Source of the DNA: Escherichia coli
GTDB taxonomy: Bacteria; Pseudomonadota; Gammaproteobacteria; Enterobacterales; Enterobacteriaceae
DNA: 64,000 bases
NCBI RefSeq assembly: GCF_024223415.1
Contig: NZ_CP100500.1
Strand: one strand, 5' to 3'
The translations under genes and the position numbers were made by a program. How positions within the stretch are numbered: position 1 is the stretch's first letter; the number at the start of each line of letters is the position of its first letter. Positions 37,240-49,723 of this stretch are shown one piece after another. Below the pieces are notes generated by a model, which saw only the letters and a program-made list of their open reading frames with translations, was not told where the DNA came from and searched no databases.

Positions 37240-37492
37240 TTGTTTTACCGCCTGATGGGCGAAGAGAAAGAACGAGTAAAAGGTCGGTTTAACCGGCCTT
37301 TTTATTTTGTGATATGTAGGAAGTACTTTGGAAGTATAAGTCCATAACTTGTCTCGATGTAGATATACTGCACAACTTGTTTACAGTATGAGCAAACAAT
37401 AATTATCATTAAAATTCTTCTTGACCGTTTTACTCCAACTCCCTATAGTAGCGCCCCGTTGCCCCCCATGAGGTCAGGCAACAAAACAATTT

Positions 37493-37580
37493 GGTGAGGT
37501 GTCCGAGTGGCTGAAGGAGCACGCCTGGAAAGTGTGTATACGGCAACGTATCGGGGGTTCGAATCCCCCCCTCACCGCCA
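37493..37580 (+). tRNA. serW: tRNA-Ser (anticodon GGA)
   Basis: 88-nt GGTGAGGTGTCCGAGTGGCTGAAGGAGCACGCCTGGAAAGTGTG...GGTTCGAATCCCCCCCTCACCGCCA with long variable arm; downstream of infA as for serW. Confidence 0.93.
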
Positions 37581-37587
37581 GATATTG

Positions 37588-37622
37588 AGCGCATGTTATT
37601 GTTTAACATGCGCTTTTTTTAT
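37588..37622 (+). terminator. Intrinsic terminator after tRNA-Ser
   Basis: gagcgcatgtta ttg tttaacatgcgc followed by ttttttt. Confidence 0.6.
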
Positions 37623-37731: not shown

Positions 37732-38574
37732 CTATACTGCCAGCATGTCAGGATAGTGTCTGACGATAATATCATTCAGTCTGTCAACCAGTTCCGGTTT
37801 CCTGAACGTGATATGCGCGGAGCCTTTCCTGAAGTATCTGATGCTGAACATCTCATCCTCATAGCATGCTTCACCCTGAACGGACCGGATGTGCTCATCC
37901 AGACGAATGAGGATATTGTCCCGGTCAGTGGGTATGGGTTTACCGCTGAACAGATACAGTATCCTTTCCAGGTCGGCAAGCCGCCCGGCCTGCGGACCAT
38001 GGTTCAGACCAAATACCCACCAGTCCCATTTCACCAGGTTGTTGAGGATAATCTTACTGCCGAATTTACAGGGTGACCCGCTGTTGTGCGTCCGGCTCAG
38101 TCCTCTGAAGAGGTTGATGACGCCCCGTTCAGCCATTTCATCCCTGTTACGGTGCAGTTGTTCAGACGTACTCAGGATATTCGCTTCGCTGATTTCCGGA
38201 AAATTATCCTCCTCCAGTGAACGGTACCATTCATCACGCGCCTGTGCATCCATCAGACTCAGCATCCCGGAGCGTTGCATCAGGTCACGCCAGATTTCAC
38301 GGTCAAGGTTCCGGGTGATGGCTTTCATTGCGGTTTCCGGTTTTTCCATCAGCCAGCAGCCACAGCGAAAATCCTGTTTCACGGCCCAGTCCCGGGCCGT
38401 TTTACCTCCGATGCTTTCTGTCATTACTGAGATTTCTGCCAGTTGCCGGATAAGCCTTTCGGTTTGTTGCAGTGCTTCATTCCGTACCGTCACAACGTGC
38501 CGGATACTGGTTGAGCAGATAACGTCCGTATGTCCGTTAAGCGTTTCCGGACGGGAGACTGTGATATCAGACAT
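37732..38574 (-). CDS. Hypothetical island protein (280 aa), possibly DUF4942-type
   Basis: Long ORF at the tRNA-proximal end of the island; family assignment from memory only. Confidence 0.4.
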   Translation of the reverse strand: MSDITVSRPETLNGHTDVICSTSIRHVVTVRNEALQQTERLIRQLAEISVMTESIGGKTARDWAVKQDFRCGCWLMEKPETAMKAITRNLDREIWRDLMQRSGMLSLMDAQARDEWYRSLEEDNFPEISEANILSTSEQLHRNRDEMAERGVINLFRGLSRTHNSGSPCKFGSKIILNNLVKWDWWVFGLNHGPQAGRLADLERILYLFSGKPIPTDRDNILIRLDEHIRSVQGEACYEDEMFSIRYFRKGSAHITFRKPELVDRLNDIIVRHYPDMLAV

Positions 38575-38887: not shown

Positions 38888-39376
38888 TTACCAGTCGAAA
38901 GTGGGAAAACCCGGCAGACATTCAGCGCCGGCATCCAGATGAATGAGACTGACGCCATAACGCCGGATGAGAGTGACAACCAGACGACGAAACGTTTTTG
39001 ACAGACCCAGGCGTTTAAGCCGCAGAGCCGGGTACGACCACGCATCAGTACGTAACAGATATCCGCTGCCTGTAAAATGAATCCATTCTGATTCGCCGTT
39101 GTCATTCGTCTGATGCGACAGCGAGTACAGCCAGGCATTGTCCTGCTCCGTGATATGTGCGGTACTGCAGCGTATGCCGGTAAGGGCCGCAAATGGTGGC
39201 ATGCAGTCTGCTGAGGTCCGGTCAGATTCATCAGCAACACGAAGGGAACAGCCATTATCGCAGACCACGTTAATCAGTTCAGCGAGATTAACACCATCGA
39301 CGTCAGCGACAATGCGCCCCATGTTCAGTGCCTGTACGTTAACGCTGTCGGCTTCCAGTGTCAGGGACAGTTTCAT
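38888..39376 (-). CDS. Hypothetical protein (162 aa) translationally coupled to cbtA (YeeW-position)
   Basis: Start overlaps cbtA stop (ATGA). Confidence 0.35.
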
Positions 39377-39750
39377 GGTTTCACCTCACAGTGTTTACCC
39401 AGGGTGATGTTGTTCACCATTCTGTAGTGGCTGCGGGTCATCAGGCCGGTCGCCCGGCGGGCCCGGAGAATATCAATGCTGCTGATTAACTGCGATGAAG
39501 CTCCTGCGCTGAATCCCGGCTGGTCGGTACGCACCAGCGCGTATTTTTCCACAAGAAAGTTCACCGCATCACACAGTGAAATACCCGCCTCAATATGCTG
39601 CTCAATCACACGTTCATCGGCGAACGGTGTGTCATTCAGCGTGAGGCCGTAGTGCTGGTCCAGCAGCCGGGTGAGCAGTGTCTGCCAGATTTCAACCGGA
39701 GACGGGCAGCGCGATGTTGCCCGTACGTGTGTGTCGGGGAATGTTTTCAT
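39373..39750 (-). CDS. cbtA: CbtA/YeeV-family cytoskeleton-binding toxin
   Basis: 125 aa from ATG 39750; [66 protein letters not shown] matches YeeV/CbtA family. Confidence 0.75.
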
Positions 39751-39808
39751 CTTAAGTACTCTGTAACAGGTGATGATAAAGAAGTGCTGTCCGGGGTTAT
39801 GCGGTGGT

Positions 39809-40174
39809 TCAGGGTGTTGCCGGTGTCGGATAAATGGCGATATACACGTAACCACAACTGCCGAGGGTGTCGGCATCGCAGGTCAGCCCTTTCGCATACA
39901 GTGTCACGGTATGCTGATGGCGGGGACTGAGTTCACCGCTGGTGAGCATGAGTTCCAGCTGTTTCATCAGCAGCGGAAAGGCCTGGTCCAGGTGGTACGC
40001 ATCTGCGTCGCTGAACCGGCCTCTGATACCGGCGCGGTCTGCAAGGTAATGCAGGCGGTTACCCTCCTGCACCAGACGGGCACCAAAACAGGGTGTCACG
40101 GTGCAGGGCAGTCCCCACTAGGGGCGGTCGCTGTTGTCGTCAGGATGCGTTGTCCCGGTGAGTGTGTCTGACAT
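39809..40174 (-). pseudogene. cbeA: CbeA/YeeU-family antitoxin interrupted by in-frame amber codon
   Basis: ATG 40174 (GAGGA upstream) reads MSDTLTGTTHPDDNSDRP then TAG (plus 40118-40120) where family has W; remainder GLPCTVTPCFGARLVQEGNRLHYLADRAG... is intact. Confidence 0.55.
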
Positions 40175-40224: not shown

Positions 40225-40881
40225 TCAGCCGGTGCGCAGACCGGCTTCGGTGAAGGTGTATCCGTTGATGAGAAGGGCCTCATCCACGGCGTCGTCTGAG
40301 GTCAGCCAGTCGTACTCGTTTTCCAGTTGACTGTATAACCAGAAGGCAAGGTCCCGCAGGGCGTCACAGACAACGGTTTCCGCGCTGGCTGTCATTGCCT
40401 GTCCGGTCGGACTGTCCCGGGTGACGGTGATATCCATGCTGTACGGATGGCAGTAGTGTCCCCGGTGGCGGATTTCAGCCTGAAGCTGCCGGAAGTTACG
40501 CTTCTGCACCGCCTGCAGGGCATCCGCGATACGATGAAGCTCACGGTCCTGCGGGGCATATTCCCTGATTTTCCGGGGTGCCGCTGGCTGCCAGCGCCAG
40601 CGTCCTTCAAAACAGGCTCCGTCCCCCTGGCTGCAGAATCCGCTGAACCAGATGCACGGCTCTTCCATAAACCTGCCGTTGCTGAGCCGGATAACACGCT
40701 GGCGGAGGGCAATCCCGACAATCTCACAGACCGTCCTGAAGTCCTCATACACGTTTTCATACCAGTTGCTGTCAGCATGATGCTGACGGTACCATTCACG
40801 GGCCTTCTCCCGTGCTGTGGCGGAAAGTTCATCCGGCGTATACACGGTGGTGATGATAATTCTGCTCATCCGCATCTCCAC
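40225..40881 (-). CDS. Hypothetical Cys/His-rich protein (218 aa) between yeeT-like and cbeA-like genes
   Basis: Intact ORF, ATG 5 bp after yeeT-like stop; motifs CIWFSGFCSQGDGACFEG and HRGHYCHPYSM. Confidence 0.45.
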   Translation of the reverse strand: MEMRMSRIIITTVYTPDELSATAREKAREWYRQHHADSNWYENVYEDFRTVCEIVGIALRQRVIRLSNGRFMEEPCIWFSGFCSQGDGACFEGRWRWQPAAPRKIREYAPQDRELHRIADALQAVQKRNFRQLQAEIRHRGHYCHPYSMDITVTRDSPTGQAMTASAETVVCDALRDLAFWLYSQLENEYDWLTSDDAVDEALLINGYTFTEAGLRTG

Positions 40882-40885
40882 TGAC

Positions 40886-41107
40886 TCAGTTCAGGGTGAC
40901 GCTCATCAGCCGGACATACGGGCCAAAACTGTCCTTCCGGCGTTCGGCAAACACGGCAAGCACACCGGGGATATCCTGCACTTCACGACCGGTATACGCT
41001 TCAGCACTGCCGTGCCAGCGGTATTTACCGGTACAGAACGGAAAAAGACGGGATGACGGATACTGACGGTGAACGCGCATGGCTTCACCACGGGTGATGA
41101 TTTTCAT
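40886..41107 (-). CDS. yeeT: YeeT/YpjJ-family protein (DUF987)
   Basis: 73 aa MKIITRGEAMRVHRQYPSSRLFPFCTGKYRWHGSAEAYTGREVQDIPGVLAVFAERRKDSFGPYVRLMSVTLN. Confidence 0.75.
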   Translation of the reverse strand: MKIITRGEAMRVHRQYPSSRLFPFCTGKYRWHGSAEAYTGREVQDIPGVLAVFAERRKDSFGPYVRLMSVTLN

Positions 41108-41196: not shown

Positions 41197-41673
41197 TTAA
41201 AGCAGACCGTGTTCCGCAAAGGAGAACACCCGGCTGCCACCGACTATCAGATGGTCCGGTACCCGGATATCCACCAGGGCCAGTGCCTGTACCAGACGTT
41301 CAGTGATAAGGCGGTCTGCCTTACCGGGTGTGACCTCACCGGACGGATGATTGTGCGCCAGCACCACGGCAGCGGCATTGTGGTACAGGGCGCGTTTAAC
41401 CACCTCCCGGGGATGCACTTCCGTGCGGTTGATGGTACCGGTGAAGAGGGTTTCACCGGCAATCAGCTGATTCTGGTTGTTCAGGTACAGCACCCGGAAC
41501 TCTTCCCGCTCCAGTCCCGCCATGTGCAGAATCAGCCATTCCCGTGCCGCATGCGTGGAGGTGAAGGCCACGCCGGGTTCATGAAGATGGCGGTCCAGGG
41601 TTTTCAGGGCCCGCTGAATGAGGCTGCGCTCGCCGGGCGTCATCGCGCCGGGCAGAAAGGAAATCTGTTGCAT
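41197..41673 (-). CDS. yeeS: RadC-like JAB/MPN domain protein (YeeS/YfjY family)
   Basis: JAMM motif HNHPSGEVTPGKADR; start ATG 41673 (MQQISF) with GAGG upstream. Confidence 0.7.
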   Translation of the reverse strand: MQQISFLPGAMTPGERSLIQRALKTLDRHLHEPGVAFTSTHAAREWLILHMAGLEREEFRVLYLNNQNQLIAGETLFTGTINRTEVHPREVVKRALYHNAAAVVLAHNHPSGEVTPGKADRLITERLVQALALVDIRVPDHLIVGGSRVFSFAEHGLL

Positions 41674-41684
41674 AACCTCACCCC

Positions 41685-42158
41685 TCAGTCGATGATGCGC
41701 ATAATGGCGCTGCATTCCGGATGCTGCAGGGCGTAATCCCGCAGCCGGTAATAATGGACCGTCATGGCATAATGCTCCGTACGGCAGGCGTGATGACTGT
41801 AGGCCATCAGGCAGGCGGCAATGCCGGCGGCTTCAGGGCTCATTTCCGCGCGGTTGCCGTTCATGGTGTTAAACAGTGCCCATGTTTCGTCATCATCGTC
41901 ACCCGGTTCGGGAGCCATAAATGCGCCGCCGTTGTTCAGGGTGTACATATTCCAGATACCCCCACTGTAGTCTTCACACAGACGGTCCATCCAGCCGAAG
42001 ATTCGGGGCTCAAGGGTCACCCACTGCGGAATGAGGCCAAAGTGCTGCGGCCAGAAGCTGATGCGCTGTTCGTCAGGCACTGGGCTGGCAACCAGCTGAG
42101 GTGGATTATTCCCGGATGCAGTGGTTGCGGAAACAGAGTCATGCGAAACCGTTTTCAT
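41685..42158 (-). CDS. Antirestriction-like protein (YfjX/YafX/KlcA family)
   Basis: 157 aa acidic protein in the conserved CP4-island position upstream of radC-like gene. Confidence 0.5.
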   Translation of the reverse strand: MKTVSHDSVSATTASGNNPPQLVASPVPDEQRISFWPQHFGLIPQWVTLEPRIFGWMDRLCEDYSGGIWNMYTLNNGGAFMAPEPGDDDDETWALFNTMNGNRAEMSPEAAGIAACLMAYSHHACRTEHYAMTVHYYRLRDYALQHPECSAIMRIID

Positions 42159-43605: not shown

Positions 43606-44060
43606 TCACATATTGGTCGCTGCCCGTTGCTGTACGCCGGCGGCGAAAATGATCTCCAGAGCATTCTGATCGATAACACGGGCCAGATTCGCGTTCAGAT
43701 TTTCAGTTTCATTTTCGGTCAGCAGGAAACTGACGGCAAGCCACGTCACCTGCTCCTGAATCATGGCAGGAATTTTGATGCGCTCCTCTTCAGCCAGAGT
43801 ACCGGCAATTTTTCCTGATACCACTGCAATCATTCCTCCCGGAACGCCGCCCGCCAGCGAATATGAAATAACCGGGGTATGCGTTCAGTGATACAGCCAG
43901 CCAGTAAAGCCGGACCGGACAGACACAGCAATATGAGTCCTGCCAGCACAGACGCTGTGCTGGTTAATGCTCTGAACAAAAAGCGAAGAATGGCAAATCC
44001 TGCGATAAGCAGGATCAGCACGCCGACTATCTGTAACATAGTCCCCCTGATAAATATCAT
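43606..44060 (-). pseudogene. YeeR-like membrane protein remnant split into two overlapping ORFs
   Basis: Two 75-aa ORFs in different frames overlapping by 4 nt downstream of antigen 43. Confidence 0.3.
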
Positions 44061-44159: not shown

Positions 44160-47100
44160 TCAGAAAGTCACATTCAGCGTGGCCTGACCGTTATAACCTT
44201 CAGCGCTGCTGCCGCTGACGCTGCGGGCATAACCGGCCTGAACACCCAGGGTGATATTTTCCCGGACACGGGCTTCCAGTCCGGCCTGCAGGTCCAGTGA
44301 TGTGCCATTCTGTGACGGTGAGAACATCATGTTACTGCCGGCTGCGGCTGTACCCATGCTCATGTCTCCCCGGGAGCTGAAGGTGCGGATAACAGAAGGC
44401 TGTACCCACCCGTTCACCGGCAGTTCACTCACACTGTGTCTGGCACTGCCGCGCAGGGTGTCACGGGATGAGCTGCCTTCACCAAAGCTCATATCGTTGT
44501 GGCTGCCCAGACGGAAACCGGCACGCACATGTTGTGCACTGCCATGCCCGAACTTCACATAACCGGCGTTATCCTGGCCGTCATCCAGGGAGAGTCCCTG
44601 CCAGGTGTACTGCAGTTGTGGCTCCAGCATCAGATGGTCAGTGATACTGAAGGGCAGACCGGTTTCCAGTGAGCCCAGCCAGCCCCGGCCCCGGGCGCGG
44701 AAGTCGTTACTGTCCGATGACGCTTTCATGCTGTGGCGGGTTTCCTGTGCCACAAGGTCAGCCCACAGGCCGGAGGACGTGTGTACCAGATTCAGGTATC
44801 CGCCCAGGCTGCCGGCATCATCCCGGACCGTGCCGGCGCGGGAGCCGTTATCATCCCTGACATCAACGGCAGAATGACCCGCAGCACCATATACCCCTGC
44901 GGTCACAGACATACCGGCAACCTCTGTTCTCAGCAGGTCCCCCTCCAGACGGACGAAGCCATAGCTGCCGCTGCTTTCCGGCGTGGCCCCACGGACAATA
45001 CCGCCGTTGTTACCGTGACCGAGATGACCGCCCTGAATGCTGAGGCGGACGCTGTTATTTTCACCGTTCACATCGCTCTGATGGCTGCGGGAGCCTGCCA
45101 GAATCCGGTCGTAGTCCATCCCCTGCGTCAGCATGGAGGCGTACAGGGGGACTTCCGCGCGATAACGCGTTTCACTGCGCAGATACCAGCTCTGGTCACC
45201 GTCACGGGTCAGGGTGTAGTCATACACCCCGGCCTGCAGCGGGTTGCCCTGAACAAAAGCGCCTTCCTCCGTGGTGGCACCATTAATGGCCTCCACCACC
45301 TGAATGCCCTTACCGGTGGTCGCCAGCCCCGACGCACTGTTGCCGGCGTTCACCAGGTTCAGGGTGGTTTTCCCGGTGGCACTGCCACCGTCAATCACCA
45401 GCCTGTCGGCATTGTGCTGTGCCAGGTCAGGGCGGACACGCAGGGTGATGCTGCCGTTCTGTCCCCGGAGATTTTTCACCGTCAGGGTGGCCGGCGTGAA
45501 GGCTCCGCTGCGGGTGCTGACGAAGTTAATCTTCCCGGCATGACGGAGTTCATCCACCACCGATTTCACCGTGGCGTTGTCCGGAATGTTCCAGGTGGCA
45601 CCGGAGGTGAGGGTGACATCCGTGGGGTCAATGGCACCGGTCAGCACGGTGCTGCCGGTCAGGCTCAGGGTGGTACCGCGCCGGGCAATGATATCCGTGG
45701 TGACGGTACTGTCGGCCAGCGTCAGTGCGCCTTCGTTAAGGCTGACGGCGTTCCGGGTGAGAGTGGTGTTGCTGACAGTGAGTGTGCCGCTTCCTGATTT
45801 TTCCACCCTGCCGTTACCGGTGAGTACGCCCCCCTGCAGAAGCGCATCGCCTTCACGGGTGACCAGGGTGCCGTCATTCACCGTCTTCCCGGAGAGGGTC
45901 AGCGTGGCACCGTTATTCAGCGTGGTGGTGCCGGTCAGGGTTCCGCCCTGCGCGGTGAGCTGCCCGCCGTTCACGGTGGTGTCACGGGCGCTGTCGCCGG
46001 CCTTCAGGGTAAAGGCGCTTCCCTTGCCCAGCGCGAGTCCTGAGGCGTGTCCGCTGCCGATACTGAAGGCACCGCCACCGTCATACTGACCGCTGACAGT
46101 GGCACCGGAATCGGCCAGCAGCATACCGCCTCTGCCCATGGATACCGTGGTGGCTGTACCACCGGTCAGGACTGCCAGCGTGCCCCCGTCATCCACCCGG
46201 GTGTCAGTGGCCGTGTGACCGTTCAGTACATCAAGACGACCGCCTGACTCCAGCAGCACGCCGTCAGCCTTTCCGTCTGCCACGGAAAAGTGGCCCGCAC
46301 GGTTTGTGCCGGAGACGGTGGCTGCCGTACCGGTAACCAGCGCACCGCCCGTATTCTGGGTGACGGCGGTGGCCTTACCACCGGCATTCACCTGCAGCTT
46401 TCCTTTCTGATTGATGGTGGTATTCTCAGCCACCGCTCCCGTCTTCACCACCTGCCAGCCACCGTCGTTAATCACCGTGTTCTGTGCCACACCGCCCTGA
46501 TGAACATACTGGTTGCCGCCGTTAAGGGTGGTGGACAGAGCGTGACCATGTACCGACTGGTCGCCACCGGCCTGTATGGTGGTTTCTCCTGCCATACCTT
46601 CGCCCGCAATGACCTGCCGCCCGTTTCTGTTCACGGTGGTGGAGAGTGCCATCCCTGCCACGAGCTGACCGGTGGCATCGTTATCAGAGTCCGGCCCGCC
46701 TTCAGCGCCGGTATTCACAACGGTGTCGGTTGCCACTGCGCCGGGTTTAACGGTCTGATAACCGTCGCGGTTAATGACAGTACCGACAGCCCTGCCTCCC
46801 TGATGTACCCACTGCTCACCACCGTTCAGGGTGGTGTTCACCGACTGCCCCCGGAGGCTCTGCCCCCCGCCGGCATGGATAACGGTGTCAGTGGCTGTAC
46901 CGCCCGTCATCACAACCTGACGACCATTTGCGGTGACCGTGGTGTTGCTGGCTGTCCCGCCATTATCTATCCACTGCCCACCGTTGTTTTCCTCACTGTC
47001 CGGCCCCAGCTCCAGCCCGGTACTAATGGTCATGCCACTGGCCGTACCGAAGACAATCTGGTTGTCGTGATTTGTCAGCGTACCGCCATTCACTGTATCT

Positions 47101-47279
47101 CCTGCCTGTACAGCGCTGTCAGCAGCCGGCGCGGGCGCTGACATGACTGCAGCAAGGGACAGTGCGGCAGCCACGCCCGCACGCTTCCCCCGCGTGCGGG
47201 CCAGTTCAGAGGCCACCGCGAAGGTGCCCGTGACGTGATTCCATACCAGCCGGTAACTGGTGTTCAGATGTCGCTTCAT
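44160..47279 (-). CDS. flu: Antigen 43 (Flu/Cah) self-associating autotransporter
   Basis: 1039 aa; signal peptide, Thr/Gly-rich beta-helix repeats, C-terminal beta-barrel ending QATLNVTF. Confidence 0.9.
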   Translation of the reverse strand: MKRHLNTSYRLVWNHVTGTFAVASELARTRGKRAGVAAALSLAAVMSAPAPAADSAVQAGDTVNGGTLTNHDNQIVFGTASGMTISTGLELGPDSEENNGGQWIDNGGTASNTTVTANGRQVVMTGGTATDTVIHAGGGQSLRGQSVNTTLNGGEQWVHQGGRAVGTVINRDGYQTVKPGAVATDTVVNTGAEGGPDSDNDATGQLVAGMALSTTVNRNGRQVIAGEGMAGETTIQAGGDQSVHGHALSTTLNGGNQYVHQGGVAQNTVINDGGWQVVKTGAVAENTTINQKGKLQVNAGGKATAVTQNTGGALVTGTAATVSGTNRAGHFSVADGKADGVLLESGGRLDVLNGHTATDTRVDDGGTLAVLTGGTATTVSMGRGGMLLADSGATVSGQYDGGGAFSIGSGHASGLALGKGSAFTLKAGDSARDTTVNGGQLTAQGGTLTGTTTLNNGATLTLSGKTVNDGTLVTREGDALLQGGVLTGNGRVEKSGSGTLTVSNTTLTRNAVSLNEGALTLADSTVTTDIIARRGTTLSLTGSTVLTGAIDPTDVTLTSGATWNIPDNATVKSVVDELRHAGKINFVSTRSGAFTPATLTVKNLRGQNGSITLRVRPDLAQHNADRLVIDGGSATGKTTLNLVNAGNSASGLATTGKGIQVVEAINGATTEEGAFVQGNPLQAGVYDYTLTRDGDQSWYLRSETRYRAEVPLYASMLTQGMDYDRILAGSRSHQSDVNGENNSVRLSIQGGHLGHGNNGGIVRGATPESSGSYGFVRLEGDLLRTEVAGMSVTAGVYGAAGHSAVDVRDDNGSRAGTVRDDAGSLGGYLNLVHTSSGLWADLVAQETRHSMKASSDSNDFRARGRGWLGSLETGLPFSITDHLMLEPQLQYTWQGLSLDDGQDNAGYVKFGHGSAQHVRAGFRLGSHNDMSFGEGSSSRDTLRGSARHSVSELPVNGWVQPSVIRTFSSRGDMSMGTAAAGSNMMFSPSQNGTSLDLQAGLEARVRENITLGVQAGYARSVSGSSAEGYNGQATLNVTF

Positions 47280-47318: not shown

Positions 47319-48857
47319 TTATTCAGCTGGCAGTGCTATGCGCCACGGAAGCAGTTCGCTGACCCGGTTGACCGGCCAGTCTGCTATGACGCCAAGCACA
47401 TGGCGAAGGTAGCTTTCTGGATCCACGTCATTCAGTTTGCACGTCCCTATCAGGCTGTACAGTAGCGCTCCCCGCTCACCACCATGGCCAGAGCCGAAGA
47501 ACAGGAAGTTTTTACGACCCAGACTTACCGCCCGCAGGGCATTTTCAGCGATGTTGTTGTCGATTTCCACCCAGCCATCGTTCGCATAGTACGTCAGTGC
47601 CGGCCACTGGTTAAGTGCGTACGCGAACGCCTTCGCCAACTCTGAGTGTCGCGACAGGGTCTTCATCTTTTCACGCAACCAGCTTTCCAGGGATTTCAAC
47701 AGCGGTTTCGTTTTTCGCTGACGTTCAGCAAGCCGCTGCTCTGCCGGCATTCCCCTTATATCCGCCTCTATGGCGTACAACTGACCGATCTGCTCCAGGG
47801 CTTCTTCCGTCAGTGCTGACGGGATGCGGACGTGCACATCGTGGATCTTTCGGCGGGCATGAGCCCAGCAGGCAGCTTCCGTTATCCCACCATTGCGATA
47901 CAGCTCGTTGAACCCGGCGTACGCATCCGCTTGCAGCACACCGCTGAAGCAAGCAAGATGAGTCTGCGGATGGATGCCTTTTCTGTCCGGGCTGTAAGCG
48001 AACCACACTGCAGGTGCCAACGCTGACCCGGCATTGCGGTCATCACGAACATACGCCCACAACCGCCCGGTCTTCGTCTTCTTATTACCCGGCATCAGTA
48101 CCTGGACCGGGGTATCATCGGCATGGAGTTTGCCGTCAGTCATGACATAGCCATGAAGCGCCTCTTCCAGCGGAGACAGCAGCCGGCAGCATGCATCCAC
48201 CCAGCCCGACAGCAGTGAACGGCTCAGCTCCACACCTTGCCGGCCGTATATTTCTGACTGGCGATACAGCGGGGTGTGCTCTGCATACTTCGAGGTCAGC
48301 ACGCGGGCCAGCAGCCCCGGTCCGGCGATACCCCGCTCGATGGGCCGCGAAGGTGCAGGTGCCTGCACGATGGCATCGCACTGAGTACAGGCATGTTTTT
48401 CCCGTACCGTCCGGATAACCCGGAAGGCGCTACGCATCAACTCCAGCTGTTCGGCGGTATCCTCGCCCAGATAGCTCAGTGAACCGCCGCAGTTCGGGCA
48501 GCACGGCGCCGCAGGCAACAGTCGCTTTTCGTCACGGGGTAGTGATTCAGGGAACGGCTTACGGATGCGGGTCTGACGCAACGGACGCTGTACTGCCGGG
48601 TCATACACCCTACCAGTCAGCGTATCGCTCTCTTTCTGAAGCTGGTTCAGATCGGCTTCCATTTGTGCGATACGGCGGGAGACTTTTTCGGAACGACTGC
48701 CGAAGTTCATCCGGCGGAGTTTATCCAGCTGCGCCTGCAGATGGTCTATTTCGCGCTCCCGGTTGCTCAGCTTTTCCTGCAGGGCGTGGATCAGCGCTTC
48801 CTGTTCGGCCAGGCGCTGTTTCAGCAGGAAGATGTCGTCAGAAGAGATGTCGTTCAT
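47319..48857 (-). CDS. IS66-family transposase (TnpC/orfC)
   Basis: 512 aa with leucine zipper N-terminus, CxxC zinc motif and conserved DDE-like core. Confidence 0.9.
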
Positions 48858-48906
48858 AAGCCCGTATTTTACCGGGCTTATTCTGTGACAACCAGGATAA
48901 AGAGAT

Positions 48907-49254
48907 TTACAGCATGGTCAGGGAGGTCAGCAGCCGCTTAGGCTGTCGCCAGTCGATACCTTCCAGCAGCATCGCCAGCTGCGCCTGTGTAAGGAACACT
49001 TTGCCATCACGGGCTGACGGCCAGGCGAAGCGCCCACGCTCCAGCCGTTTGGTCAGGAGGCACAGTCCGTCACCGGTGGACCACAGCAGTTTAACCTGAC
49101 TGCCGCTGCGGCCCCGGAAAATGAAAACATGGCCGGACATGGGATCGTCTTTCAGCGCCGTCTGTACTTTCGCAGCCAGGCCGTTGAAGCCATTTCTCAT
49201 ATCGGTGATACCGGCAACCAGCCAAATTTTGGTCCCGGAAGGTAAAGGGATCAT
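48907..49254 (-). CDS. IS66 Orf2 (TnpB) accessory protein
   Basis: 115 aa [31 protein letters not shown]... Confidence 0.85.
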
Positions 49255-49652
49255 CGCTTCAGTTCCTGTATCAGCAGAGTCAGGAGCTTTTCGCTGACAT
49301 TGCCATTGAAGCGGAGCGTCCCGTGCCGGAACGTTACCTCACAGCTGATACTGAGGGTTTCCGGGTCCTCTGCGAGCGATTCTGGCTGTTCGGCAGCTGC
49401 ATCGAGAGTCACAGGAAGTAGCTGGGGGCTCTCTGAAGAAGGTAATAGCAGCTTTCCCTCGCGCCATTGTTGTCGCCATTTGAACAACAGATTGGCGTTA
49501 ATGCCATTTTCAAGAGCAAGTTTTGAGATGGATATCCCGGGTTCACAGGAGGCAGCAACGAGCTGCTGTTTAAATTCGGGAGGATAATTAGGGCAGCCTT
49601 TTCGCCTGCCGGGAGTCACATTTTTCTGCATATCTGACACTTTGGTTCCCAC
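49251..49652 (-). CDS. IS66 Orf1 (TnpA) HTH accessory protein
   Basis: 133 aa; overlaps orf2 start (ATGA). Confidence 0.8.
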   Translation of the reverse strand: MGTKVSDMQKNVTPGRRKGCPNYPPEFKQQLVAASCEPGISISKLALENGINANLLFKWRQQWREGKLLLPSSESPQLLPVTLDAAAEQPESLAEDPETLSISCEVTFRHGTLRFNGNVSEKLLTLLIQELKR

Positions 49653-49723
49653 TACTTATTTGGTGGACACCACTTTGTCTAATTCGTCAGATTCTGACCA
49701 GACGGTTCAGGCTGTACGCTTAC

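Follow-up and report, generated by a model that had tools for sequence, protein, structure and literature searches.

The antitoxin gene cbeA of an otherwise ordinary CbtA/CbeA type IV module, carried on a serW island in the stretch of Escherichia coli DNA analysed here (64,000 nucleotides, referred to as the window), has very probably suffered a recent, spontaneous loss-of-function mutation of Dcm-site origin. The mutation is an amber codon at position 19 of cbeA, and the adjacent toxin gene cbtA is intact. The features of the module are as follows.

39809..40174, minus strand: cbeA/yeeU-family type IV antitoxin gene, a pseudogene of 121 codons plus stop with an amber at codon 19
40118..40120, minus strand: the in-frame amber TAG, codon 19 of cbeA
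40121..40174, minus strand: residual N-terminal ORF of 18 codons, which retains its original ATG and Shine-Dalgarno sequence
39809..40099, minus strand: possible restart ORF of 96 aa from a GTG (codon 26), taken from the ORF list
40118..40122, plus strand: mutated Dcm site, CTAGG here and CCAGG in relatives, by direct reading of the window and of related locus L008
39763..39840, minus strand: C-rich, G-poor stretch covering the cbeA 3' end and the spacer, with a C/G ratio of 2.3-3.1 by composition count
39373..39750, minus strand: intact cbtA/yeeV-family toxin gene of 125 aa, with F65 and C15 present

An interrupted antitoxin beside an intact toxin

Translation of the minus strand from 40174 to 39809 gives MSDTLTGTTHPDDNSDRP, which is the whole of the residual ORF, followed by the stop, by WGLPCTVTPCFGARL and onward to a C-terminal ATP and the natural stop, bearing out the TAG that the earlier note had placed at 40118-40120 in the antitoxin frame. 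The remainder of the frame is undisturbed, as that note had also held, with 102 sense codons past the stop where it had counted about 100. When the TAG is read as Trp, the repaired antitoxin matches Pfam PF06154 CbeA_antitoxin over residues 18-117 (E 1.3e-54) and aligns along its entire length with the crystal-structure sequences of YeeU, 2INW and 2H28 (E 6.5e-78 and 1.1e-74), and the equivalent 366-bp gene in relatives is annotated as WP_032289760.1. The locus is therefore, with a TAG at codon 19, a member of the CbtA/CbeA system by descent whose antitoxin gene is a pseudogene. Ribosomes would halt after 18 codons, so that full-length CbeA would not be made from this copy, and no second copy of cbeA or cbtA was found within the 64-kb window.

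The substitution had been described as TGG to TAG at a conserved Trp. Relatives support TGG as the ancestral codon, but W19, the first Trp of a WW pair, is the variable one: R, T, Q or a gap takes its place in 5 of the 26 aligned family members, whereas W20 hardly varies and G21 and L22 do not vary at all in the same alignment.

The downstream toxin is full length, as previously claimed, its 125-aa ORF matching Pfam PF06755 CbtA_toxin completely (1-112 of 112, E 1.9e-59). It is 100% identical to the toxin adjoining intact antitoxins in relatives. In K-12 CbtA, F65 is a determinant of the interaction with FtsZ and R15 is needed for MreB binding; an R15C variant loses MreB binding and is still toxic via FtsZ (PMC5624674). 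The toxin in the window has Cys at position 15, a residue it shares with YpjF and YkfI, paralogues that are toxic. A hidden inactivating change in cbtA was considered and ruled out, the allele being the one paired with intact antitoxins and F65 being kept. Comparison with near-identical relatives revealed no compensating change in the toxin, in its ribosome-binding region or in the upstream genes.

The in-frame GTG at 40099 had been put forward as a site of translational restart, and it does open a 96-aa ORF. That the module is still functional in this way, with termination at UAG, reinitiation 18 nt downstream at the GTG and an active 96-aa antitoxin, is in our judgement distinctly unlikely. 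The sole Shine-Dalgarno-like element available to this GTG, GGGGA at 40116-40112, forms a duplex of -5.5 kcal/mol, as against an anti-Shine-Dalgarno duplex of -6.5 kcal/mol at the native cbeA start, and lacI provides an established case of reinitiation after early amber codons. The shorter natural paralogues, for example YfjZ with just 105 aa, lack the first ~14 residues, and in an AlphaFold model of the repaired antitoxin residues 1-30 are unstructured and the first strand begins at residue 31; this model, of low confidence (mean pLDDT 60.8) and used cautiously for its secondary-structure outline only, is too weak to lean on. The restart is nevertheless weaker than had been implied. The 12-nt spacing between GGGGA and GTG lies at the limit of spacings that function, the predicted local fold (-30.6 kcal/mol) pairs both elements, and the product would lack W20, G21 and L22, a WGL motif kept even in the short YfjZ. 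GTG restart yields are usually a small fraction of normal, and a look-up of the 96-aa product found that exact sequence not on record.

The nonsense codon might instead silence cbtA in cis, since about 370 nt of untranslated RNA could lead to Rho termination before or within cbtA, in which case antitoxin and toxin would be lost together. This outcome is possible, although we think it unlikely. E. coli operons are generally subject to nonsense polarity, and the C-rich stretch at 39763..39840, just upstream of cbtA, has a composition that might allow Rho to load there if translation does not cover the region. The toxin gene starts 58 nt past the cbeA stop, on the same strand and with the antitoxin upstream, and its own Shine-Dalgarno match is weak (-2.4 kcal/mol). 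However, any rut site or terminator here is putative, and the promoter and terminator scan was set aside because it performed near the shuffled-control level. Reinitiation at codon 26 would also counter polarity, and an internal cbtA promoter is possible.

Full-length CbeA could in principle still arise by amber readthrough, with a suppressor tRNA or a naturally high readthrough rate, but this is extremely unlikely. A UAG followed by U is an efficient terminator context. A check for amber suppressor tRNAs in the 64-kb window gave no candidate, its sole tRNA being a tRNA-Ser(GGA) and not a suppressor (ARAGORN, Rfam), and the DNA, with its P2-like prophage and large island, comes from a wild-type-like E. 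coli rather than a laboratory suppressor strain.

Origin, age and distribution of the amber codon

The changed base, 40119 on the plus strand, is the internal cytosine of CCAGG, the one that Dcm methylates, and the change is a C-to-T transition. When C(5me)CWGG is deaminated, the resulting T:G mismatches lie in CTWGG, and Vsr very-short-patch repair acts on them (PMC2715241). As read from the bases involved, the conversion of CCAGG to CTAGG bears the classic signature of 5-methylcytosine deamination yielding an amber codon: the cytosine at 40119, presumed to be Dcm-methylated, would have deaminated to thymine and escaped very-short-patch repair, turning codon 19 from TGG to TAG. The strain is presumed to carry dcm and vsr, both of which would lie beyond the window. 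W19 is one of just two cbeA positions at which Dcm-site deamination gives amber, the other being Q64, and cbtA has zero such sites. Over 5.6 kb, stop-creating changes account for 2.7% of all possible single-base changes (0.2% in cbeA), and a single amber event carries no statistical weight because it was picked out after the fact. The Dcm-site position of the mutation, absent from the earlier note, is its most informative feature.

Coulondre and Miller reportedly described, in 1978, amber hotspots in lacI at Dcm (CCAGG) sites that arise from 5-methylcytosine deamination escaping Vsr repair. Like the cbeA mutation, these hotspots convert CCAGG to CTAGG at the internal C and make TAG. They were found in a selected laboratory reporter, whereas cbeA is a prophage gene of a natural isolate in which methylation of the site is presumed. 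The locus is a clean natural example of a Dcm-site amber mutation.

The same motif bears on the alternative that the true base is C (TGG) and that T is a consensus error of nanopore basecallers at Dcm-methylated CCWGG. The change falls exactly in a CCAGG motif, neither complete genomes nor metagenomes otherwise show the TAG allele, and with older ONT basecallers ~70% of consensus errors lay in Dcm motifs (PMC6591954). Such an error is very unlikely here. CCWGG sites are conserved with respect to related locus L034 at 24 of 25 positions over 10 kb, and 144 are kept in the window (2.25 per kb); with one site in 25 differing, the motif shows no systematic error. Reading frames of the window's core genes are full length, and TAG is also carried by a separate, independent-looking draft, GCA_900482235.1, whose contig ends inside an IS element, as is typical of short-read assemblies.

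Deamination in a natural lineage remains our preferred reading, and near-identical relatives suggest that the mutation is recent. L008 differs from the window at a single base, 40119, over 6,384 bp and reads TGG, while L034 differs over 10,016 bp by the 40119 base and a 1-nt length difference in a G run. One mismatch in the first comparison, one mismatch and a 1-nt indel in the second, and no compensating change all point to a young allele. Codon 19 is TGG in every other related locus in which its position could be identified, and antitoxin and toxin are intact in all other related loci covering both genes. The draft GCA_900482235.1 (L038) is 100% identical to the window over 11,242 bp, TAG included, its contig breaking at the IS element. 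It possibly represents the same isolate as the window, or even the same read set.

In 5,426 complete E. coli genomes, none of the 286 copies of this sequence context carried the TAG allele. This count used 30-nt queries, each seed word of which includes the mutated base; they replaced 41-nt BLAST queries, for which one and two mismatches share an identity band and TAG and TGG are inseparable. Exact-pattern scans found the TAG allele in 0 metagenome contigs, compared with 14 for the TGG control, and in none of the species-representative genomes. A literature search for cbeA pseudogenes, or for a nonsense antitoxin beside an intact toxin, returned nothing useful. Locus L041, reached via a 100-aa CTG-start product, was considered as a second amber allele and rejected as a contig-edge artefact carrying TGG. 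Gene callers treat the gene differently, one collection having annotated a 100-aa product that begins at a CTG codon, and this serves as an annotation warning.

The dN/dS ratio of cbeA among divergent copies (0.13-0.28) points to long-term purifying selection, under which loss of the antitoxin would not be neutral in the long run. It is very improbable, then, that antitoxin loss was itself selected because low-level CbtA activity or altered cytoskeleton bundling is beneficial, for instance by increasing biofilm. K-12 antitoxin deletions do raise early biofilm 2-4-fold (PMC5371832), the amber is the sole change in more than 6 kb, and the two Dcm-to-amber sites lie in cbeA and none in cbtA. Against these points, there is one event in one lineage, with no recurrence in the 286 same-context copies or in metagenomes. 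More speculatively still, the Dcm sites at codon 19 and Q64 could form a built-in weak point that knocks out the antitoxin and never the toxin, a toxin-only adaptive switch selected in some niche; we consider this highly doubtful. Were it true, low-level CbtA activity or lost FtsZ/MreB bundling would alter cell shape, biofilm or tolerance.

The serW island

The module belongs to a CP4/P4-like genomic island whose insertion site is tRNA-Ser (serW). Its surroundings comprise the following features.

37493..37580, plus strand: tRNA-Ser(GGA), serW, adjoining infA at the island/chromosome junction (ARAGORN, Rfam)
37732..38574, minus strand: DUF4942 gene, the last of the island before the tRNA (annotation in relatives)
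38888..39376, minus strand: DUF5983 (yeeW-like) gene, its ATG overlapping the cbtA stop (ATGA) (Pfam DUF5983 on an identical product)
40225..40869, minus strand: 214-aa ORF upstream of cbeA, 218 aa if read from an upstream GTG (phrog_5162, unknown function, E 1.1e-34)
40886..41107, minus strand: DUF987 (yeeT-like) gene (annotation in relatives)
41197..41673, minus strand: RadC-family (yeeS-like) gene (NCBIfam TIGR00608, E 8.8e-43)
41685..42158, minus strand: antirestriction-family gene (PF03230 on a product of identical length)

The gene order (antirestriction, RadC, DUF987, 214-aa ORF, CbeA, CbtA, DUF5983, DUF957, DUF4942, tRNA-Ser) matches that of annotated relatives. Similarity to the islands of these relatives, which adjoin ghrA, stops at 37486. 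NCBIfam searches with the antitoxin, the toxin and the neighbouring ORFs gave no match except RadC, and the tRNA was the sole Rfam match. The 214-aa ORF is variously labelled in annotations as hypothetical, as 'antitoxin of toxin-antitoxin stability system' or as DUF8835. It has no Pfam or NCBIfam match and thus no evidence for an antitoxin role, and PHROGs gave families of unknown function only.

P4-like integrative islands at serW/serX of E. coli include OI-43/OI-48 and SpLE1 of O157:H7, which carry tellurite and urease genes. The island in the window seems to resemble these in its tRNA-Ser(GGA) junction, its Ag43/Cah-family autotransporter and its CbeA/CbtA block. It differs in cargo, having an ABC transporter and an oxoprolinase/carboxylase cluster in place of the tellurite and urease genes.

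Expected tolerance of antitoxin loss and known CbtA/CbeA modules

The earlier note had treated an intact toxin with a nonsense-interrupted antitoxin as unusual. That the state is biologically paradoxical is not supported by K-12, where cbeA, yafW and yfjZ can be deleted singly (Keio strains) or all three together with growth and viability unaffected (PMC5371832). Toxin and antitoxin mRNAs in K-12 are low, toxin mRNA is unchanged in antitoxin deletions, the CbtA-family chromosomal toxins are toxic only if over-produced, and CbeA-family antitoxins do not autoregulate their operon (PMC5371832). CbtA inhibits polymerisation of FtsZ and MreB, as established with the K-12 proteins. CbeA does not bind CbtA and promotes FtsZ and MreB bundling, and the paralogous antitoxins cross-neutralise, YafW and YfjZ both blocking CbtA (PMC5371832). 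The amber allele is expected to be tolerated, because in K-12 the paralogous antitoxins neutralise CbtA as well and can be dispensed with. Of the three escape routes that had been suggested, neutralisation by another factor and low toxin expression match the data on the K-12 homologues (PMC5371832), while restart is possible but weaker. The tolerance data were obtained in the laboratory with the K-12 homologues, and with another toxin allele (R15 vs. C15).

Extrapolating from these homologues, the strain would survive with a toxin that is weakly transcribed and toxic only when over-produced. Since the antitoxin does not repress the operon, its loss would by analogy leave toxin expression unraised. 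Since CbeA-type antitoxins act on FtsZ/MreB and not on the toxin, any paralogous copy elsewhere should be able to substitute, and paralogous antitoxins presumed to be encoded elsewhere in the genome would stand in for the lost CbeA. The premature stop may in addition lower toxin expression via transcriptional polarity, and low-level reinitiation at GTG 40099 may add to the effect. Matches to the region occur in 4,925 of the 5,426 complete E. coli genomes, at a median of 3 places per genome, and genomes with this island have 2-11 matching places each; the identical antitoxin protein is also present in a second island of strain 23CRST013.

The importance of the finding is small, the module being a textbook CbtA/CbeA pair whose apparent paradox is explained by published deletions. 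The locus is the natural equivalent of antitoxin knockouts made in the laboratory and fits a view of CbtA-family toxins as non-addictive at native expression.

Like the CbtA/CbeA (YeeV/YeeU) module of CP4-44 in K-12, the module in the window combines PF06154 with PF06755, has the antitoxin upstream, contains F65 in the toxin and lies within the same antirestriction, RadC, DUF987 ... DUF5983 block. It differs from the CP4-44 module in the amber at codon 19, in C15 as opposed to the R15 of K-12 CbtA, in the extra 214-aa ORF between the DUF987 gene and the antitoxin, and in the location of its island at serW. The YpjF/YfjZ (CP4-57) and YkfI/YafW (CP4-6) pairs belong to the same families, and their toxins likewise have Cys at position 15. 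Their antitoxins YfjZ and YafW, of 105 aa, start near residue 15 of the window protein and keep WGL, whereas the product of a restart at codon 26 would not.

The interrupted antitoxin and its toxin

The features on which the analysis rests are as follows.

Antitoxin locus and its surroundings (window coordinates)
40174-39809, minus strand: cbeA, a 121-codon antitoxin frame beginning at the ATG at 40174, with TAG at codon 19 (40120-40118)
39750-39373, minus strand: cbtA, an intact toxin ORF of 125 aa, with its ATG at 39750, 58 bases downstream of cbeA
40225-40869: ORF of 214 aa, flanked by the DUF987 gene and cbeA, with no counterpart in the K-12 modules
37493-37580: tRNA-Ser(GGA), the only tRNA in the window

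Translation of the cbeA frame, MSDTLTGTTHPDDNSDRP*WGLPCTVTPCFGARL..., confirmed the claim of an earlier note that an amber codon interrupts the antitoxin frame beside an intact toxin gene. With codon 19 read as Trp, the product matches Pfam CbeA_antitoxin at residues 18-117 (E 1.3e-54), and the YeeU structures 2INW and 2H28 match the repaired antitoxin over the full-length sequence. The cbtA product matches Pfam CbtA_toxin across the entire model (1-112 of 112, E 1.9e-59), and the DUF5983 gene begins in overlap with the cbtA stop codon. No second copy of cbeA or cbtA is present in the 64-kb window. The mutated codon had also been described as a conserved Trp; W19 in fact varies (R, T or Q in four aligned members and a gap in a fifth), and it is the neighbouring W20 that is conserved. 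Upstream of the annotated start, the cbtA frame contains no stop as far as an ATG at 39876, which lies within the 3′ end of cbeA and gives a mechanical ORF of 167 aa (39373-39876); relatives are annotated with the 125-aa form.

Origin and distribution of the amber allele

Over a 1-kb region, the window and five complete genomes differ at two positions, 40119 and 40233, the latter polymorphic (Thr/Ala) and located within the 214-aa ORF, whose version in the window is found in many other assemblies. Position 40119 is the sole difference over 6,384 bp from one related locus (L008, GCA_012248885.1), and is accompanied only by a 1-nt difference in the length of a G-run over 10,016 bp from another (L034). 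Every related locus in which the site could be located has TGG, and antitoxin and toxin are both intact in every related locus covering the genes. Searching with a 30-mer, each 28-base seed word of which spans the mutated base, gave zero matches for TAG in 5,426 complete E. coli genomes, vs. 286 copies of TGG in 273 of them. The TAG pattern was likewise absent from metagenome contigs (14 for the TGG control) and from species-representative genomes.

The one exception is a draft contig, L038 (UDHK01000029.1 of GCA_900482235.1), which carries TAG, matches the window at 100.000% identity across 11,242 bp, shares its serW/infA context, and presumably derives from the same strain. This 43.6-kb contig begins inside an IS66 element, as is typical of short-read drafts, whereas the window reads through the IS, indicating two different assemblies. 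Taken together, these sequence comparisons point to a single, recent and private mutation. In L038 (7291-7593, equivalent to window 40111-39809), the amber allele is called as a 100-aa CbeA from a CTG codon (L22). L041, an unrelated contig-edge fragment, has TGG yet carries the same 100-aa product, so look-ups of the truncated product can mislead.

At 40118-40122 on the plus strand, the window has CTAGG and its relatives CCAGG, so that 40119 falls on the internal cytosine of this Dcm site, which is where Dcm methylates. Deamination of C(5me)CWGG generates a T:G mismatch in CTWGG, which is normally corrected by Vsr very-short-patch repair (PMC2715241). Deamination at 40119 escaping this repair would yield exactly the observed transition. 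The classical lacI amber hotspots arise by the same route, and the mutation studied here appears to match this known Dcm/5-methylcytosine mechanism. The repaired cbeA contains three CCWGG sites, and of the six deaminations that these allow, two produce an amber codon (at W19 and at Q64); for the one CCWGG site in cbtA, both outcomes are synonymous. Such a distribution of Dcm sites gives the gene pair a built-in asymmetry in mutational vulnerability.

Dcm motifs are also where nanopore consensus errors concentrate (PMC6591954), and the T at 40119 might on that account be a sequencing artefact. However, 24 of 25 CCWGG sites are unchanged relative to L034 over the shared 10 kb (144 in the whole window), which speaks against systematic errors at the motif; L038 has the same base, and the core genes of the window contain full-length ORFs, making an artefact very improbable.

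Toxicity, possible restart and tolerance of antitoxin loss

We found no sign of a hidden inactivating change in cbtA, the toxin being identical to the allele found beside intact antitoxins. It retains F65, which is required for FtsZ binding (PMC5624674). Its codon 15 (39706-39708) encodes Cys, as in the toxic paralogues YpjF and YkfI, whereas K-12 CbtA has Arg at this position; in K-12 CbtA, R15C abolishes MreB binding, and the R15C/F65S double mutant is the only non-toxic form (PMC5624674).

The in-frame GTG proposed as a restart site is present at 40099 and opens a 96-aa ORF. It lies 18 nt downstream of the UAG and 12 nt downstream of a GGGGA (anti-Shine-Dalgarno duplex –5.5 vs. –6.5 kcal/mol at the native start), natural paralogues have a shorter N-terminus, and residues 1-30 are unstructured in a low-confidence model whose first strand spans 31-37. 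However, the restart product would lack the nearly invariant W20 and the invariant G21 and L22, kept even by the 105-aa YfjZ, the 12-nt spacing is long, and local folding is predicted to pair both the GGGG element and the GTG (–30.6 kcal/mol, z –1.8). A functional product from this start is unlikely, and viability can be explained without one.

The combination of an intact toxin with a broken antitoxin poses no paradox, given the properties of the three K-12 homologues studied by Wen et al. 2017 (PMC5371832). Growth and viability are unaffected by Keio single deletions or by triple deletion of cbeA, yafW and yfjZ, toxins and antitoxins are transcribed at low levels relative to relBE, and antitoxin deletion leaves toxin mRNA unchanged, indicating no autoregulation in these homologues (PMC5371832). 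CbtA is blocked by YafW and YfjZ, and YkfI and YpjF by CbeA; CbeA does not bind CbtA and instead promotes FtsZ and MreB bundling, which makes protection generic (PMC5371832). The CP4-6 antitoxin is preceded by three genes that have no toxin-neutralising effect (PMC5371832), and in all these studies toxicity resulted from over-production (PMC5624674, PMC5371832). The module is widespread: the region is matched in 4,925 of 5,426 genomes, the median genome having three such places and genomes with this island 2-11; in strain 23CRST013, a second island encodes the very same antitoxin protein.

The amber codon would leave ~370 nt downstream of it untranslated. Part of this is a stretch just preceding the toxin gene (39840-39763) that is C-rich and G-poor (C/G ratio 2.3-3.1), and the cbtA Shine-Dalgarno match is weak, from which we infer that Rho-dependent polarity could lower toxin expression.

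In divergent copies of cbeA and cbtA, dN/dS is 0.13-0.28, and neither the related loci nor the 286 copies in the same context yielded a further disrupted one. Over evolutionary time, the antitoxin frame is kept. The likeliest reading of the amber allele is that of a young, possibly transient lesion and not a stable state. Early biofilm rises 2-4-fold on antitoxin deletion in K-12 (PMC5371832), which leaves a slim chance that antitoxin loss is advantageous.

Island context and relation to known systems

The window is E. coli DNA. A P2-like prophage adjoining serS occupies positions 1 to ~22,000 (tail fibre, tape measure, tail sheath and P2-family capsid genes; 99.8% identity to prophages of several E. 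coli isolates from chickens and humans), and is followed by the core genes serS to infA. The genomic island extends from ~37.6 kb to the window end, with 99.76% identity over 26.5 kb to the island of strain TUM1886. At 37486-37600 it is joined to the tRNA-Ser beside infA (serW), whereas 99.98%-identical copies in other strains lie at the tRNA-Ser beside ghrA, presumably serX. Similarity to the latter passes through the tRNA and ends at 37486, so that this one island is seen to use two alternative tRNA-Ser genes.

The Ag43/Cah-family autotransporter gene (44160-47279) is intact here (1,039 aa) and an annotated pseudogene with an internal stop in the TUM1886 island; decay strikes different genes in different island copies. 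Directly beside it lies an ISEc8-like IS66-family element (47319-49700; 512-aa transposase, tnpB, tnpA), the one in which contig L038 breaks. The G-run at 44048, one base shorter than in L034 and the same in L038, lies between the DUF905 gene and Ag43, a region of fragmentary pseudogenes in the TUM1886 annotation.

The CP4-like block (DUF932, antirestriction, RadC, DUF987, 214-aa ORF, CbeA, CbtA, DUF5983, DUF957, DUF4942, tRNA) has exactly the order of annotated relatives. The 214-aa ORF has no match in Pfam or NCBIfam, its sole match being phrog_5162, of unknown function; its RefSeq names are inconsistent (hypothetical, "antitoxin of toxin-antitoxin stability system", DUF8835).

The locus has the domains, the gene order and the island context of the CbtA/CbeA (YeeV/YeeU) type IV family, but the uninterrupted antitoxin frame of that family is missing, leaving a toxin gene whose neighbouring antitoxin is a pseudogene. 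Judged by these features, the locus is a CbtA/CbeA member by descent and nothing new in kind.
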